DNA from: a virus
Virus record (IMG/VR): IMGVR_UViG_3300045971_000356
Location: 32,001-96,000 of that record
Strand: one strand, 5' to 3'
DNA length: 64,000 nucleotides
This document shows positions 10,079 through 55,084 of the stretch, piece after piece (within the stretch, counting starts at the first letter, position 1; each line of letters opens with the position of its first letter). Position numbers and translations under genes: made by a program. Below the pieces are notes generated by a model that had not been told where the DNA came from, made no database searches, and saw only the letters and a program-made list of their open reading frames with translations.

Positions 10079-10867
10079 ATGCAATCAAATAATATTTATT
10101 ATTACGCTAACGCCGTTGACGTTCAGCTTGACTTAGACCCCACTATAACCACGAGGAATCGCATTGTGTATCAAAGAACTGTGAAAATTTATAAGGGCGT
10201 TGATAACACCCTGCAATTTAACTTTAAAAACTCCGACCAGAAAGCTGTCAACATCACTGGCTGGGACGTTTCGTTCAATGTCATATCTGATACTGATGGT
10301 GTTGTGATTTTGAGCAAGTTAGCAACCGTAGTAGATTTGCTTAAAGGCATCGTTACTGTTGAGTTAAATGAGTTGGATTTGATTGGGTTAGATCGTGAGT
10401 TTTACAACTATACGTTGAGCGTAACGGACCCACTTACAGGCAAAACCAAACCCGTGTATGTGGACGACAACTACGATGTTCGTGGTGAGCTGTCAGTATT
10501 GCCAGGGCGTTATCCTACCTTCTTGCCAAGCATTCAAGTTGGCTTCCCAACTGACAGCAACGTTACGGTTACCACAAGTGCTATCCGCAGCGAGTCACCA
10601 TCCCGCCAACTTAGCACATCGCACACAGCACAGTTTTACTTTGACAACTTCACGGGCAATATCGCTGTGCAAGCGACACTGGACTCGCTGCCACCAAATG
10701 GTGCTACGTCAGCAAACGTAACACTAAGCTGGGCAACCATTTCAACGTTGCCATACGTGAACCAAACTACACCAGATTATTACAACTTTGATGGTGTGTT
10801 TACGGCAGTTCGTTTTAACATAGCCAAAGATTCCGGCACTGTGACATCGGCGTTATACCGTCCTTAA
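10079..10867 (+). CDS. Putative virion structural protein (BppU-like beta-sandwich)
   Basis: KIYKGVDNTLQFNFKNSDQKAVNITG pattern; late promoter ATAAATA at 10068. Confidence 0.5.
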   Translation: MQSNNIYYYANAVDVQLDLDPTITTRNRIVYQRTVKIYKGVDNTLQFNFKNSDQKAVNITGWDVSFNVISDTDGVVILSKLATVVDLLKGIVTVELNELDLIGLDREFYNYTLSVTDPLTGKTKPVYVDDNYDVRGELSVLPGRYPTFLPSIQVGFPTDSNVTVTTSAIRSESPSRQLSTSHTAQFYFDNFTGNIAVQATLDSLPPNGATSANVTLSWATISTLPYVNQTTPDYYNFDGVFTAVRFNIAKDSGTVTSALYRP

Positions 10868-10917
10868 TTGAGCCTATGGTATTTGATTTTACAGGAGCAG
10901 GCATATATAATAAGTGT

Positions 10918-11946
10918 ATGTCTACTCTGATTCAAGAAACTGCCCTAAGTCACTGGCGTGGCAAAACGAACTCCAAAGGGTGGAATTCTGGCAATGCGGT
11001 ATGCTGCACTCATAACGGCGAAACAATGGATTCCCGTGGTCGCGGCGGGTTCAAATCAGAGCCAGACGGATCAATTGTTTACTCTTGCTTTAACTGTCAA
11101 TTCACAACAGGCTACACACCAGGGCATCCATTATCCTACAAGTTTAGAAAACTACTTAGCTGGCTCAATGTAGATGATTTAGAAATCCATAGACTCTCAA
11201 TAGAAGCATTACGAGAGAAAGAAAAAATGGAGTTGCTGGGGATTATTGCCCCAGAAGTTAAAAAAGAGGAAATCAAAACAAACTACAAAGTTGAGCCTCT
11301 GCCAGAACAGGCGTTGTCGTTTATTGCGTTAGCTGAGTTTTACGAGTTGAAGGATAGTTTGGATTACCCCACAGGGTTAATGGAAGCAGTTGATTACATT
11401 AGCACTCGCAAGATAGACATGCGTAAGTATGATTTTTTGTGGACGCCAGACACAAGTTATAAGATGAACAAGCGGGTGATTATACCGTTTGTTTGGAAAG
11501 GGCAGACGATTGGATATACAGCACGAGCGATGCATGATGGAATCCTGCCTAAGTATGTAACGCATGTGGACTCAGGTTTTGTGTTCAACATGGACGCACA
11601 GAAGAAGGATTCCAAGTTCGTGATTGTATGCGAGGGTATCTTTGACGCATTGTCCGTAGATGGTGTTGCGGTGATGAAAGCTAACGCTAACCCACAGCAA
11701 GTAGCGCTCATTGAAAGTTTAGATCGCGAAATCATCGTTGTGCCTGATATGAACAAAACTGGTCGCAAGCTAATAGACCTTGCACTAAATAATAACTGGT
11801 CGGTGGCTTTCCCAGTGTGGGCGGAAACTTGCACCGACATCAATGAAGCAGTTTGCAAATACGGCAAATTGTTTGTGCTCAAAACAATACTTGACAGTGT
11901 TGAACGCAGCAAGCTAAAAATAAAACTACGAAGGAAGAAAATCTGA
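10918..11946 (+). CDS. DNA primase (T4 gp61/DnaG-like)
   Basis: Zn finger CCTH..SCFNC; TOPRIM VCEGIFDALS, VPDMN, DINEA. Confidence 0.85.
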   Translation: MSTLIQETALSHWRGKTNSKGWNSGNAVCCTHNGETMDSRGRGGFKSEPDGSIVYSCFNCQFTTGYTPGHPLSYKFRKLLSWLNVDDLEIHRLSIEALREKEKMELLGIIAPEVKKEEIKTNYKVEPLPEQALSFIALAEFYELKDSLDYPTGLMEAVDYISTRKIDMRKYDFLWTPDTSYKMNKRVIIPFVWKGQTIGYTARAMHDGILPKYVTHVDSGFVFNMDAQKKDSKFVIVCEGIFDALSVDGVAVMKANANPQQVALIESLDREIIVVPDMNKTGRKLIDLALNNNWSVAFPVWAETCTDINEAVCKYGKLFVLKTILDSVERSKLKIKLRRKKI

Positions 11947-12578
11947 TGAAGGTTGCTGTAATTGGATATCCGAGAACTGGATCTACTCTGGCTAGTATGC
12001 TATTATGTGAAGCATACAACTTAGAATATCTTGGGGAGTTAGTTCGTGGGTATTATAGCGACAGTGACAAGAGTTTAGCCTTTACAAAGTTAGATACCGT
12101 AGATAATATTTGCGTTAAATTTTTCCCAGGGCACATAAAAAATCATATTTCTGAAATTAGTTGGGGATTGTTTGATATAATCATAACAACTGGAAGAAAA
12201 TCAATAGTTGACGCATATATTAGTTTGGAATTTGCATTAAGCACTAATCATTGGATCAAGACTAAAGGTGATAGCTGGGCTACAAATATTCTTTCTGTAG
12301 ATGCATCTACAGAAAGAATACAGAAATGGGTAGAAGTTTATCTAGCATCACTTAACACAATAATTACAAAAATTGAAGCAATATATAAAAAACCAATTTT
12401 AAACTTTACATATGAAGAATTATTGAAAACTGCACCTGCAATGAAATCAGTGATCCCTGATCAAACAACTAATAAGTTGACAAGATTTGGAATAATACCA
12501 GCTGATATTAATTATAAAGAACAATGCATTAATTATGTAGAAGTAGAAAACAAATTTAAGGAGTTGGGGCTAATATGA
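11946..12578 (+). CDS. Sulfotransferase family protein
   Basis: PAPS-binding loop GYPRTGST; R-x7-S (RKSIVDAYIS); YEEL. Confidence 0.7.
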   Translation: MKVAVIGYPRTGSTLASMLLCEAYNLEYLGELVRGYYSDSDKSLAFTKLDTVDNICVKFFPGHIKNHISEISWGLFDIIITTGRKSIVDAYISLEFALSTNHWIKTKGDSWATNILSVDASTERIQKWVEVYLASLNTIITKIEAIYKKPILNFTYEELLKTAPAMKSVIPDQTTNKLTRFGIIPADINYKEQCINYVEVENKFKELGLI

Positions 12579-14017
12579 GTGAAGGCAAAGTATACAATAA
12601 AGATTTACAGCAGTTGTTTTTGGAGATGATGGTGGACTCGCCAGAGAGTTATGTGCGAGTTCAAAATATTTTTGATGTAAAAAACTTTGATCGCTCACTA
12701 CAAGAGGTAGCTGAGTTTGTGAAAGAGCATGCTGACAAGTATAAAGCAATGCCTACGGTTGAACAAATTAACGCATCGTTTGGTGTAGAGTTAAAGACAA
12801 CAAAGGGACTTAGCGAATCACATTACGATTGGTTCTTAGCTGAGTTTGAGGGGTTTAGTAAGACAAAAGCACTTGAGCGGGCGATTTTAAAAGCAGCAGA
12901 CTTGCTTGAGAAGGGCGGCGACTTTAACCCCATTGAAAAGTTGATTAAAGATGCGATACAGATAGGGTTAGTTAAGGACATTGGCACTGATTACTTTAAA
13001 GATCCACGGGAACGGCTGATGCAAATTAAGTCGTCCAATGGGCAAGTTAGCACTGGCTGGAAGAACTTAGACAAGGTGCTGTTTGGCGGCATGAACAGGG
13101 GCGAGTTAAACATTTTTGCTGGCGGCTCGGGTTCAGGTAAGTCACTGTTTATGCAAAACATTAGCGTGAACTGGATGACAGCAGGACTGAACGGGATTTA
13201 CTTAACGCTTGAGTTGAGTGAAGGGTTGTCTGCTATGCGTATTGACGCTATGGTAGCAAACTGCGGCACGAAGGACATTTTCAAGAACTTGGACGATGTT
13301 GAGTTAAAAGTTGGAATGACAGGTAAACGCTCAGGCAAGTTTCAGTTGAAGTATTTGCCCGCACAAAGCAATGTAAACGATATTCGTGCGTTTATCAAAG
13401 AATACGAAATTCAGATGAAAGCCAAAATAGACTTCTTGATGGTTGACTATTTGGACTTACTAATGCCCGTGACAGCTAAAGTTAGTCCAAATGACTTGTT
13501 TGTTAAAGACAAGTATGTATCGGAAGAACTGCGTAATTTGGCTAAGGAATTAAATGTATTGTTTATTACTGCGTCACAGTTGAATCGTGCAGCAGTTGAC
13601 GAGACAGAGTTTGATCACTCGCATATTTCGGGTGGTATTTCCAAGATCAATACAGCAGACAATGTGTTTGGTATCTTTACGAGCCGTGCGATGCGTGAGC
13701 GCGGTAAATATCAGCTACAGTTACTAAAAACACGTTCAAGTTCTGGTGTTGGCAGCAAGGTAGACTTAGATTTTGATGTAAACAGTTTACGAATTGTTGA
13801 TGCAATTGAGTCTGATGACTCAAACGGAAATACTTCTGCCCCTACAATGGCAAATAACATCTTGAATGGCATTAAGGGCAAGTCCAAAGTAACTAAGCCT
13901 GGTGAATTATTAGATGAGCATACGGGCGAAATCACTAAGGCACCACAAGCAGAGATACAAGCGACTATGTTGAAAAATATGTTGAACGGGCTTAAGACCC
14001 CAATTAAAACAAATTGA
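12575..14017 (+). CDS. Replicative DNA helicase (DnaB/T4 gp41-like)
   Basis: GGSGSGKS Walker A, LELSE, VDYLDL, TASQLNR. Confidence 0.9.
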   Translation: MSEGKVYNKDLQQLFLEMMVDSPESYVRVQNIFDVKNFDRSLQEVAEFVKEHADKYKAMPTVEQINASFGVELKTTKGLSESHYDWFLAEFEGFSKTKALERAILKAADLLEKGGDFNPIEKLIKDAIQIGLVKDIGTDYFKDPRERLMQIKSSNGQVSTGWKNLDKVLFGGMNRGELNIFAGGSGSGKSLFMQNISVNWMTAGLNGIYLTLELSEGLSAMRIDAMVANCGTKDIFKNLDDVELKVGMTGKRSGKFQLKYLPAQSNVNDIRAFIKEYEIQMKAKIDFLMVDYLDLLMPVTAKVSPNDLFVKDKYVSEELRNLAKELNVLFITASQLNRAAVDETEFDHSHISGGISKINTADNVFGIFTSRAMRERGKYQLQLLKTRSSSGVGSKVDLDFDVNSLRIVDAIESDDSNGNTSAPTMANNILNGIKGKSKVTKPGELLDEHTGEITKAPQAEIQATMLKNMLNGLKTPIKTN

Positions 14018-17982: not shown

Positions 17983-18855
17983 TTACTCGTCAGCTTTCTT
18001 AGCGATATATCGCTTCCAAACAAAAACAAATATTGGTAGTAATATGGTTGACCACAGCCATTGCCCGTATTGCTTTAACCACCCAAAAAGAACCTGTTGT
18101 TTAGTAATATCAATAAACACAGACTGGTCGAATGTAGTTATATGACGGTTAGCAGACATATCATCTACGACTACTAATGCGTCAACAGTGATTTTAACCT
18201 CTTGCTTACCGGGTTTAGTTGGAGTCAAATCCCATTCCCATATAGTAGGCGCAGATTCTGCCAATGCTTGCTCTTCTGTGCTAAGTGCGACCACAGTGAA
18301 CGACGGAGCAATGAGTTTCACAGTGATGATTTTAGATACCTGTATTTTGCTTGAAACAACAATGCCTTTTTGCTCAATATTTACTTCCCCAACTTTCTTC
18401 TTTGGGTCAAGTATTACTTGAATGCGGAACTTTTCTGCGACATTGACAGACTCAGGAACATTAAACGCAATAGTAGACTCGTGTAACTGATCAAGTATGT
18501 TGTCCGTTGTCGTGTGCTTTGCGGTAGCAGTCCGTTCTGCTTTTGAAACAAGAACTGCCATTCGTCTAACACTGCGAACAGCTTTTTCCATTTCAGCGTC
18601 TTTCTCTGTTTTACTAACTTTATCTGTTGCGGCAGATTCAGTCGCAGAGGCTTTTTTAGCCTTTGATGCAAAATTAAAGTTAAATGAAGTATCACCCGCA
18701 ATGAATGCTGCTCTTGGGCTTGTGACCGGAATCGGCGGCGAAGGCATAGGTATTGATGCTGACACGGGCATAAGCACTACTACAGGCATTGGTTGTAGAG
18801 TTCCGCAAGACACTAATAAAATACATAGTAAGGGAGTAACAATATGTTTTTTCAT
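17983..18855 (-). CDS. Lipoprotein with Ig-like region and C-terminal membrane anchor
   Basis: Lipobox LLVSC; Pro-rich linker; C-terminal hydrophobic helix; late promoter 4 nt upstream. Confidence 0.6.
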   Translation of the reverse strand: MKKHIVTPLLCILLVSCGTLQPMPVVVLMPVSASIPMPSPPIPVTSPRAAFIAGDTSFNFNFASKAKKASATESAATDKVSKTEKDAEMEKAVRSVRRMAVLVSKAERTATAKHTTTDNILDQLHESTIAFNVPESVNVAEKFRIQVILDPKKKVGEVNIEQKGIVVSSKIQVSKIITVKLIAPSFTVVALSTEEQALAESAPTIWEWDLTPTKPGKQEVKITVDALVVVDDMSANRHITTFDQSVFIDITKQQVLFGWLKQYGQWLWSTILLPIFVFVWKRYIAKKADE

Positions 18856-18893: not shown

Positions 18894-19301
18894 ATGGACC
18901 TAATATTATCGTTTATTTTGCGTAACAAAGGGCTAGTCGTAGGTCTACTTCTTATGGCAGCATTGGGTGGATGTTACATTTACATAGACATGCTTAAAAA
19001 TGATGCAAAGGTTATCATTGCAGAAAAAAATGTAGTTATAGCGGAGTTGCAAGCGTCACAAGCTGCGTTAAAAGGGCTGCAATCTGCAATCAATGAGCAA
19101 AACTCAGCAGTAACTAAGTTAAAGGATGATGCCGAAGCAAGGGCAGCGGCAGGCCAGGCAGAAATAACGCAAGCAAAAGTAACCTCAGAGCTATACAGGC
19201 GCAAAGCGTCAGACTTGATGAAGGTTAAACCAGATCCAAAACTGTCTCGCTGCGATGCTGCTAACGCTCTTATAAACTCGGAGATCGGCAATGCAAACTA
19301 A
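18894..19301 (+). CDS. i-spanin (Rz-like)
   Basis: N-terminal TM helix, coiled coil, Cys near C-end, overlapped by lipoprotein gene. Confidence 0.7.
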   Translation: MDLILSFILRNKGLVVGLLLMAALGGCYIYIDMLKNDAKVIIAEKNVVIAELQASQAALKGLQSAINEQNSAVTKLKDDAEARAAAGQAEITQAKVTSELYRRKASDLMKVKPDPKLSRCDAANALINSEIGNAN

Positions 19302-19587
19302 ACTTTTATTATCTCTATTGGCAGCATTTGCGTTAGCTGGTTGCGCGACGACTAAAGAGCCTGTGATTACTACAGTAATACAAAAAGTAGAAGTGCCTAT
19401 TTCGGTGCCATGCAAAGTGGAAATGCCACCACCACGCGATTACAACTTTAACAAGATTACAGCAGAGATGGATATTTTTGAGAAAGTGCAGGCGCTACTT
19501 GCTGACAGGCGCTTACACTTAGGCTACGAAGCTGAACTAAAAGCAACATTAGGGACCTGCACCGCAGATACAATTAAGGCAAAATAA
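19291..19587 (+). CDS. o-spanin (Rz1-like lipoprotein)
   Basis: Lipobox LAGC; VEVPISVPC..PPP. Confidence 0.75.
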   Translation: MQTKLLLSLLAAFALAGCATTKEPVITTVIQKVEVPISVPCKVEMPPPRDYNFNKITAEMDIFEKVQALLADRRLHLGYEAELKATLGTCTADTIKAK

Positions 19588-19630: not shown

Positions 19631-19638
19631 TATAAATA
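19631..19638 (+). promoter_or_regulatory. T4-type late promoter TATAAATA driving the cytochrome gene
   Basis: Exact TATAAATA; GGAGG RBS downstream. Confidence 0.7.
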
Positions 19639-19668
19639 AAAGTACATACTTTTAATATAGGAGGAAAT

Positions 19669-20310
19669 ATGTTTTTGAAGAAGTTATTTGCGGCCTTATT
19701 CGCTGTAAGTGTAGTTAGTGCTGGCGCCGGCACCATTGTAGGATCAGCACATGATTTTAGTGGTCAAGCATGGTCTCCGAATGCGCAAACTTGCGTGGCT
19801 TGTCACGCACCTCACGCAACAGCAGTTCTGGCAGATGCTCCACTTTGGAACCACGCATCATCAGTAGCAACATACACTGTTTACGCATCATCATCAATGA
19901 ATGCAACGGTGGGGCAACCTGGCTCAACCTCCAAACTTTGCTTGTCATGCCATGATGGTACGGTGGCAGTTAATTCTTTTGGCGGAGTGACTGGTACTAC
20001 AATGCTGACTGGCGGTTCAAATCTCAGCACGGTATTAACTAATGACCATCCGATCGGTTTTACTTATGATGCTGCGTTAGTAACAGCAGACGGTGCGTTG
20101 GCTCCAATTACAAATACAGTTACCTTAGGTTCAGGTACTAAAGTTAAATCTGGACCCACTGTAACTATAGCATCTGCTATGTTATATGCGGGTAAAGTTG
20201 AATGCGCATCATGCCATGATGTACATAATACATTTACCGCTGCAACTGGTAAATTGGTAAAAGTGTCAATGGCATCAAGTGCATTGTGTACCACTTGCCA
20301 CACTAAATAA
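19669..20310 (+). CDS. Secreted tetraheme c-type cytochrome, OmcE-like
   Basis: Sec signal peptide; four CxxCH (CVACH, CLSCH, CASCH, CTTCH); HDFS, PH, PLWN, YASSSMN, NDHP and VH motifs laid out as in Geobacter OmcE (recalled). Confidence 0.85.
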   Translation: MFLKKLFAALFAVSVVSAGAGTIVGSAHDFSGQAWSPNAQTCVACHAPHATAVLADAPLWNHASSVATYTVYASSSMNATVGQPGSTSKLCLSCHDGTVAVNSFGGVTGTTMLTGGSNLSTVLTNDHPIGFTYDAALVTADGALAPITNTVTLGSGTKVKSGPTVTIASAMLYAGKVECASCHDVHNTFTAATGKLVKVSMASSALCTTCHTK

Positions 20311-20324
20311 ACATCAAAACCGCA

Positions 20325-20354
20325 GAAAACTGGCACTTTCGAGTGCCAGTTTTC
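20325..20354 (+). terminator. Intrinsic terminator after the cytochrome gene
   Basis: gaaaactggcact-ttcg-agtgccagttttc. Confidence 0.8.
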
Positions 20355-20416: not shown

Positions 20417-20710
20417 ATGAATAGAATTTTAGCGGCTTTGCTTATTGCTCTTGTAGTAATACCAGTGATGGCGAAAACAAACAAAAACGATAGTGCATAC
20501 ACTGAAAAGTATTCGTTTGAAGAAAAGATAAAAGATCAATACAATAACGGCAAAAATGATATAAATTTTGACAAAAATGAGTATGCAGATTATAGCAGCA
20601 GCAATGATCATTATACTCCGACAAGTCCAGTGCCAGAACCGACATCTTGGATGATGATGCTTGCCGGCGGAATAATAATTAACCGCCTTCGCAAAAAGAT
20701 GCATAAATAA
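20417..20710 (+). CDS. PEP-CTERM sorting-domain protein
   Basis: Signal peptide; S/T/P linker; VPEPTSWMMMLAGGIII followed by basic RLRKK. Confidence 0.8.
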   Translation: MNRILAALLIALVVIPVMAKTNKNDSAYTEKYSFEEKIKDQYNNGKNDINFDKNEYADYSSSNDHYTPTSPVPEPTSWMMMLAGGIIINRLRKKMHK

Positions 20711-20715
20711 TATAT

Positions 20716-21066
20716 TGTTGTATATCCCTTCAAAGCGAAGGAATTCTGGACGGGGATGCGAATTCCCCCTCCTCCACCAAAAGTGCTCTAAATTGAGTAG
20801 TAATACTTGATCAGGTTTGGCATCCCGGGTAAACTCTCCAGCAATGGACTCGTCCGTATACGCCGTGAGTACTTTTGATGGGGGAGACTAGTTTCGACAG
20901 GGTTAGATAGTAGAGACGGCAACTCAGTAGGCGATGACTGTATAAATCAAGCAAATCAAACTAAAGGCAAACGATAGTTTATATTCCTTAGCCGCTTAAG
21001 GCATGGGTGGGGAGGCTGTACCCTGTAACACTTTAGCAGAGACCCGCTTCACGGCGGGTTTCTTTT
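20716..21066 (+). ncRNA. ssrA: Circularly permuted (two-piece) tmRNA, tag (A)ANDSLYSLAA
   Basis: T-arm GGGGA-TGCGAAT-TCCCC and CTCCTCC-ACCA (to 20779) precede the 5' acceptor strand GGGGGAG (20880), with G3:U70; tag ORF 20967-20999; late promoter 20703; terminator 21038-21066. Confidence 0.92.
21038..21066 (+). terminator. Intrinsic terminator of tmRNA
   Basis: agagacccgc-ttcacg-gcgggtttct-ttt. Confidence 0.8.
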
Positions 21067-54008: not shown

Positions 54009-54055
54009 GTACATATACCTAAACAATTTGAACCCAAGAAAGAATGGTGGAAGAT

Positions 54056-55084
54056 ATGAACAAGAAATTCGTTACTGGCCTTGTTGTTGGTAAGTTCTGC
54101 CCGCTACACAAAGGTCACCTTAAAGTTATCAACACTGCCCTTGACCAATGTGAAAGGGTGGTGATCCTGTCGTATACCTCGGAAAACTTTCCTAAGTGTA
54201 GTAGCGAAAAACGGCAAAAATGGTTAGAACAAGCAGTTATTAAATCTGCTGATCGTGCTACTGTGCGAGTCATTGACGGTAGGGCATTCGCAGCACAACT
54301 TAAAGATGACTCACCGGAAGATAAACACCGTGAATTTTGTGCCGATTACTTGCTGAATAATTTAGACACAACTGTACAAGCGGTATTTACTTCGGAAGAC
54401 TACGGCGACGGATTTGCTGATTTCTTGAGTCTCTACTTTACTGCTAACTTGCTGAATCCAATGTCAGTAAAGCATGTCATGGTAGACAGGGAGCGAAAAG
54501 AGTTCCCAATCTCTGGCACTCAACTTCGTGAATCAGTGATGTACATAGACAAATTTGTGCCGTGGTTTGTCTCAAAAGATTTTGTGCGTAAGGTACTTTT
54601 CCTTGGTGGTGAATCAACTGGCAAGACTACTCTTGTAAATGCGTTAGGCGATTCCCGACACAATGTACTGGAATTTGGTCGTTGGTTATTTGACAAGAGA
54701 GAAGGTAAACTTCAGTATGAAGATATGGCATACATTGCTAAATGTCAACTTGAAGCAGAACATTACAAAGCAGCAAGCCTACTTATGTCAGAGTTTCTGT
54801 ATTGCGATACATCACCGTTGACGACGAAGTTTTACTCAGAGGAATGGTTTGGACGCACCGCCCCAGAACTTGAAGATATGGTGCACGAGAGCGAAAGCGC
54901 ATACTACAAAGTATTTCTGTGTGCGCCAGACTTTCCAATGGTGCAGGACGGTACACGACAAGACGAAAAGTTTCGCAGTAAAGGTCACGAATATTACTTG
55001 AATGCTCTCAACGGCAAACCGTATACTCTGCTCACTGACAGTATCGAAGAACGAATCGCAAAAGTAAAGGCTGAACTGTTTTGA
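54056..55084 (+). CDS. nadR: NadR-like bifunctional NMN adenylyltransferase / nicotinamide riboside kinase
   Basis: GKFCPLHKGH, ISGTQLR, GGESTGKTT, CDT, QDGTR; no HTH. Confidence 0.85.
   Translation: MNKKFVTGLVVGKFCPLHKGHLKVINTALDQCERVVILSYTSENFPKCSSEKRQKWLEQAVIKSADRATVRVIDGRAFAAQLKDDSPEDKHREFCADYLLNNLDTTVQAVFTSEDYGDGFADFLSLYFTANLLNPMSVKHVMVDRERKEFPISGTQLRESVMYIDKFVPWFVSKDFVRKVLFLGGESTGKTTLVNALGDSRHNVLEFGRWLFDKREGKLQYEDMAYIAKCQLEAEHYKAASLLMSEFLYCDTSPLTTKFYSEEWFGRTAPELEDMVHESESAYYKVFLCAPDFPMVQDGTRQDEKFRSKGHEYYLNALNGKPYTLLTDSIEERIAKVKAELF

Follow-up and report, generated by a model that had tools for sequence, protein, structure and literature searches.

Filaments of multiheme cytochromes are, to our knowledge, the only protein wires that carry electrons over micrometers, and both their assembly and their role in the cell are still debated. 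Within the OmcE family, we know of demonstrated polymerization only for the Geobacter and Desulfuromonas proteins, and for the betaproteobacterial branch polymerization is a prediction. The two solved OmcE filaments are PDB entry 7TFS, titled 'Cryo-EM of the OmcE nanowires from Geobacter sulfurreducens', and 9YUQ, a bundled OmcE nanowire from Desulfuromonas soudanensis (PMC13712944). OmcE polymerizes head to tail, with a histidine from each subunit coordinating a heme in its neighbor (PMC9473688). Among phages, the systems most like the one described here are psbA of cyanophages and the NapC/NirT multiheme cytochrome reported from amoC-phages (bioRxiv 10.64898/2026.06.18.733297). As in our case, each is a host-derived gene kept by a large phage and grouping with the homologues of the likely host lineage. 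Those genes encode membrane or periplasmic enzyme subunits, whereas the gene examined here would encode the building block of an extracellular filament. A literature search found no published phage-encoded cytochrome nanowire subunit.

We analyzed a window of 64,000 nucleotides, part of a 166,302-bp IMG/VR virus record (G000) that CheckV rates as 47% complete. An earlier note, made from the letters of the window, had described a gene for a protein with a signal peptide, four CxxCH motifs and four additional histidines, forming a self-contained unit directly after the spanins. All of these elements were recovered, and the locus reads as follows, in window positions:

18894 to 19301, + strand: i-spanin-like gene with an N-terminal membrane helix, overlapping the next gene; matches phrog_3774 and is syntenic in phage fragment L084.
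19291 to 19587, + strand: o-spanin-like lipoprotein gene with lipobox LAGC; matches phrog_3580 (E 2.8e-17) and, weakly, phrog_456 'Rz-like spanin' (E 8.8e-5); syntenic in phage fragments L084, L085 and L091.
19631 to 19638, + strand: T4-late-promoter-like box, an exact match to TATAAATA, 31 nt upstream of the start codon.
19659 to 19664, + strand: Shine-Dalgarno sequence AGGAGG, by direct reading; contains the GGAGG noted earlier.
19669 to 20310, + strand: gene for an OmcE-family tetraheme c-type cytochrome (P0001) of 213 aa, identified by phmmer against PDB sequences and by a fold match.
19669 to 19731, + strand: Sec signal peptide (residues 1-21), recognized by eye from a basic N-terminus, a hydrophobic core and an AGAG cleavage region.
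19792 to 19806, + strand: heme motif 1, CVACH (C42-H46), followed by the distal ligand candidate H49; motif invariant in a 50-sequence family alignment.
19939 to 19953, + strand: heme motif 2, CLSCH (C91-H95); invariant in the same alignment.
20203 to 20217, + strand: heme motif 3, CASCH (C179-H183), followed by H186; motif invariant in the same alignment.
20287 to 20301, + strand: heme motif 4, CTTCH (C207-H211); invariant in the same alignment.
20325 to 20354, + strand: intrinsic terminator with a 13-bp stem and a T-rich tail.
20417 to 20710, + strand: gene for a PEP-CTERM protein of 97 aa with a signal peptide; matches TIGR02595 at 23.6 bits (cut-off 16) and falls just below the Pfam cut-off.
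20666 to 21065, + strand: two-piece (permuted) betaproteobacterial-type tmRNA gene; matches Rfam RF01850 at 119.6 bits (gathering score 84) and RF04321 at 119.4 bits.

The two genes upstream of the cytochrome look like a spanin pair. On the opposite strand just before them (17983-18855) lies a gene for a 290-aa lipoprotein with lipobox LVSC and a C-terminal membrane helix, which had no match in Pfam, NCBIfam or PHROGs and whose start codon is preceded by a TATAAATA box at a distance of 5 nt. The box occurs seven times in the window against 4.2 expected, and a lone copy is not significant. Across the whole record, 8 of 17 copies fall within the roughly 9% of the sequence that is intergenic by crude gene calls. 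Upstream of the cytochrome, the box is kept together with about 15 following bases (TATAAATAAA.GT.CATACTT) in three diverged phage copies of the gene (L084, L085, L091). This distribution and conservation fit a putative T4-type late promoter and are not proof of one.

The four non-motif histidines are H28 (HDFS), H49 (APH), H127 (NDHP) and H186 (DVH), of which H49 is at least 90% conserved and the others are invariant in the 50-sequence alignment. Generic multiheme families were the only matches in Pfam and NCBIfam, while phmmer searches of PDB sequences aligned the protein over its full length with both solved OmcE filaments, 7tfs_A (E 4.4e-26, query 11-213 to chain 14-232) and 9yuq_N (E 1.7e-22, query 8-213 to chain 6-218). 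All four heme motifs and the four distal histidines align, leaving all eight ligand histidines of OmcE in place, and the signal peptide, ending in AGAG and followed by TIVGS, aligns with the OmcE signal region. An AF2 model built on 50 homologues (pLDDT 70.8) had 7TFS as its sole PDB fold match (Foldseek E 9.7e-5, probability 1.0, TM 0.44-0.46); VIA-align superposed 162 residues at an rmsd of 3.9 Å (Z 8.2), a moderate fit because the model contains no heme. A predicted complex of two mature copies with four hemes, run without controls, scored 0.01, a value that weighs neither for nor against polymerization. The kinship to OmcE proposed in the earlier note is thus borne out by both searches, and the outcome that it had named as contrary, a non-polymerizing periplasmic cytochrome as the best structural match, was looked for and did not occur.

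The phage protein resembles Geobacter sulfurreducens OmcE (GSU0618, 7TFS) in its length, Sec signal, four CxxCH motifs, identical order of the four distal histidines and mostly coil fold, at 31-34% identity. It differs in having histidine (H62) in place of arginine in the WN[HR] motif, and its gene comes without omcE accessory or glycosylation genes, its filament being only predicted. With the Desulfuromonas soudanensis WTL protein (9YUQ) it shares the full-length match, and its nearest cellular relatives lie in the same minimal type of gene cluster (PMC13712944). We considered H62, a fifth extra histidine (WNH), as a phage-specific ninth histidine of the 'anchor' kind (PMC13712944) and rejected the idea, since the residue is at least 90% conserved in the 50-sequence alignment in cells and phages alike. 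By descent, the phage cytochrome is a member of the OmcE family, and an orphan one.

The cytochrome gene lies inside a phage genome. Besides the spanin-like genes directly upstream, the window carries rIIA (E 1e-130), rIIB, a DnaB-type helicase, a primase, a ribonucleotide reductase and an NMN adenylyltransferase, and the remainder of the record carries a DNA ligase, NAMPT, a tRNA island and homing endonucleases. A Terminase_6C family search found none in the phage record, and when the ten largest ORFs beyond the window were scanned against PHROGs, none matched a capsid or terminase family. The complete genome is estimated at about 350 kb, and the structural module probably lies in the half that the record lacks. 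The identification as a phage rests on rIIA/rIIB, the replication genes, the spanins, the tRNAs and CheckV. The record also holds an NAD salvage set, consisting of NMN adenylyltransferase, nicotinamide phosphoribosyltransferase and a cytidylyltransferase/NUDIX protein (window 54044-55084; G000 105603-107045 and 107622-108638).

Six other low-GC phage fragments from separate metagenomes, representing five distinct sequences, carry the cytochrome, and three of the six keep the order of spanin and cytochrome:

L084 and L085, from two JGI samples: i-spanin, o-spanin, cytochrome and tmRNA; about 80% nucleotide and 87% protein identity.
L091, from a third JGI sample: o-spanin and cytochrome.
L092, from a Logan run: cytochrome on a 980-bp low-GC contig.
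L089 and L090, from two ENA assemblies (14.7 and 29.4 kb, GC 0.39): cytochrome among HNH and GIY-YIG endonucleases, endonuclease I and dCMP deaminase.

L084 and L085 also preserve the junction of cytochrome and tmRNA. L089 and L090 have other segments in common with the present phage and place the cytochrome in a different neighborhood.

A host-like protein sequence in a metagenomic assembly raises the question of whether host DNA was joined to the phage by assembly error, or is a recent passenger without function. Third-position GC content (GC3) of the cytochrome gene is 0.30, within the range of the phage ORFs (mean 0.37 ± 0.08) and unlike that of any cellular copy: despite 75-85% protein identity, the cellular homologues have GC3 values of 0.81-0.90 (L004-L009) or 0.52-0.57 (L003, L086, L087). 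These values rule out a chimeric join to host DNA. The same junctions recur in separately assembled contigs that share only some 80% nucleotide identity, and pairwise comparison of the phage copies gives dN/dS of 0.05-0.13, synonymous sites being saturated. This reading is refuted, and we leave it hardly any probability. The earlier note had cited the promoter against host contamination; codon amelioration and the independent phage contigs with shared junctions now confirm that the gene is the phage's own.

All phage copies have low GC3 (0.22-0.35). Maximum-likelihood analysis groups the six phage-type sequences in a single clade (SH-aLRT 93), which is nested within a betaproteobacterial clade (97, 99). 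The gene is host-derived, phage-adapted, long resident in the phage lineage and under strong purifying selection. Across the mature protein, phage and cellular copies are separated by two fixed differences only, and the N- and C-terminal segments are best conserved. The phage version thus resembles a normal subunit rather than an altered or inhibitory form.

The cytochrome found no match in nucleotide and protein searches of GenBank phages, nor in a scan of IMG/VR with a single protein query. An alignment-based scan of IMG/VR, following the earlier note's proposal to survey viral databases, recovered four more viral contigs (L094, L095, L096 and L097; 536, 181, 304 and 11.7 kb; GC 0.31-0.53), each with one solitary OmcE-like tetraheme gene at 38-45% identity among phage-type neighbors. 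The 181-kb contig has terminal repeats, and the Terminase_6C search found none in any of the four. Gene GC3 matches the contig in three of them and is higher in the 536-kb L094 (0.71 against about 0.5-0.6 in neighboring ORFs). The tree puts these genes well away from the present clade, at about three different points, which suggests that viruses have acquired OmcE-like genes repeatedly.

The nearest cellular homologues belong to uncultured Betaproteobacteria (for example, MAG MFD00032.bin.2.34, contig L004). Where the neighborhood was read (L002, on the same contig as L004; L003; L087), the homologue is the first gene of a six-gene cluster, in the order OmcE-like cytochrome, NHL propeller, a protein of about 680 aa ending in RDF, a second NHL propeller, an 11-heme cytochrome and a 9-heme cytochrome. 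This type of cluster fits the minimal omcE cluster described in PMC13712944. The cellular copies share their ligands with the phage clade nested among them and differ in GC3 (0.52-0.90) and in their clustered setting, the phage copies being solitary. Among 251 genomes of the order of the nearest MAG, the gene was found in that MAG only.

The clusters showed further OmcE-like sequence. Their 11-heme cytochrome contains an OmcE-like domain (L002 15231-16919, L003 7376-9127, L087 6081-7784) that aligns with residues 37-213 of the phage protein at 39-46% identity and thus lacks the N-terminal His28 segment; the 11-heme protein is a candidate for the base or an end piece of the filament. Outside these clusters, metagenomic proteins (P0121, P0122, P0123, P0236) carry two to four tandem OmcE-like units per chain, as in one of 1400 aa with four matched stretches, and are in effect covalently linked nanowire segments.

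The tmRNA gene bears on the host. Between positions 20712 and 20974 it shares 94-96% identity with L084 and L085, compared with only about 80% for the coding DNA of these fragments. Inspection of the Rfam alignment by eye gives ANDSLYSLAA as the predicted tag. ARAGORN did not detect a tmRNA at 20666-21065. A two-piece beta-type tmRNA is present in a Rhodocyclaceae MAG, and the three MAGs with the nearest OmcE homologues gave no above-cut-off match to one. The phage and its relatives form a lineage of large, T4-like phages whose hosts are probably Betaproteobacteria.

No omcE accessory gene for export or assembly was found in the 166 kb of the phage record (47% complete), nor was a heme-attachment gene of the CcmF/CcsA family. 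The omcE cluster by which PMC13712944 recognizes likely nanowire homologues thus surrounds the nearest cellular homologues and is missing around the phage gene. Since the phage has the subunit without the accessory genes, any filament must be built by host machinery.

We favor, at a probability of about 0.5, the reading that the cytochrome is a host-derived auxiliary metabolic gene supplying the high-copy subunit of a nanowire that the host finishes. The gene would be a working copy of the OmcE subunit, and its precursor would be exported by the host Sec system and receive four hemes from the host cytochrome c maturation system. The machinery of the host omcE cluster, which we assume to be present (an outer-membrane beta-barrel, two beta-propeller lipoproteins and two larger multiheme cytochromes), would then carry it out of the cell. 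There it would polymerize alone or mixed with host subunits, its hemes stacking and a histidine ligating the heme of its neighbor. The phage would carry the subunit only, because no other component is needed in nearly as many copies. Supply of the subunit would lapse if host gene expression drops during infection, and a phage copy may keep extracellular electron exchange, and hence the energy supply, running while the phage replicates. The logic would equal that of psbA in cyanophages. Heme attachment, export, polymerization, the timing of expression and the benefit to the phage are all steps that we infer. Should the TATAAATA box act as a late promoter, with the cytochrome expressed together with the spanins, production would begin shortly before lysis, which is late for an energy-boosting gene.

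A second cytochrome module lies outside the window (G000 10179-13562; L093 1180-4562), where four adjacent genes inside the phage tRNA island encode a 545-aa TPR/BamD-like plus beta-barrel protein, a 170-aa 4-heme cytochrome, a 242-aa 7-heme cytochrome and a 145-aa four-helix, His-rich membrane protein. Other large phage contigs retain it, among them L102 (273.5 kb) and L104-L109. We considered these genes as omcE accessory genes and rejected them in that role, as the similarity is at the level of motifs only. The 7-heme cytochrome of the module is absent from the three other OmcE-carrying IMG/VR phage records searched. The other phage contigs considered for co-occurrence of the module and the OmcE gene are 15-37% complete.

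This conserved module, 40 kb from the cytochrome, together with the absence of every omcE export gene from the 166 kb of phage sequence, would accord with a soluble periplasmic tetraheme carrier that does not polymerize and may feed the phage's own porin-cytochrome-like module. We think this unlikely. The conserved positions of the phage protein are nearly identical to those of cellular subunits sitting in full omcE clusters, the module is unrelated to the omcE accessory genes and has no physical link to the cytochrome, and the three other phage records have OmcE-like genes without the 7-heme cytochrome of the module. A more ambitious arrangement, which we consider decidedly improbable, is that the phage brings a near-complete electron conduit, comprising the His-rich inner-membrane protein, two periplasmic multiheme cytochromes, the outer-membrane barrel and the OmcE-type wire subunit, and so rewires respiration to external minerals or partner cells. 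If that were true, viruses would directly control extracellular electron transfer, and hence iron and carbon cycling.

The late-type promoter-like box and the adjoining lysis genes could also point to a phage subunit that alters or caps host nanowires, either blocking superinfection through a filament receptor or changing cell contacts in flocs and biofilms, and the PEP-CTERM surface-protein gene next to the cytochrome in this phage would suit such a role. The related phages L084 and L085 lack that gene, which is an insertion relative to them; in both, a TTGACA-17-TATAGT promoter and the tmRNA come immediately after the terminator of the cytochrome. With two fixed residue differences and all ligands kept, the protein gives no sign of a dominant-negative or capping form, and H62 is shared by the whole clade and is not particular to phages. 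We put a role in altering or capping filaments at very low probability, and return to the supply of subunits to host-built wires as the preferred reading.

New in this analysis are a well-sampled phage lineage carrying the gene, its close link to cellular omcE clusters, the quantified amelioration and purifying selection, and the co-resident second cytochrome module. A subunit gene under strong selection in phages, and present in four further viral contigs from about three distant groups, would be independent evolutionary evidence that the filament matters to the energy supply of the cell. The locus would place OmcE-type wires in Betaproteobacteria, a group outside the classical electroactive organisms, and the phage copy, being compact, AT-rich and self-contained, lends itself to experiments on which accessory genes export and polymerization require. 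Under the preferred reading, phage auxiliary metabolism would extend to extracellular electron transfer, and viral infection may affect redox cycling linked to iron, humic substances and nitrate in sediments and groundwater.
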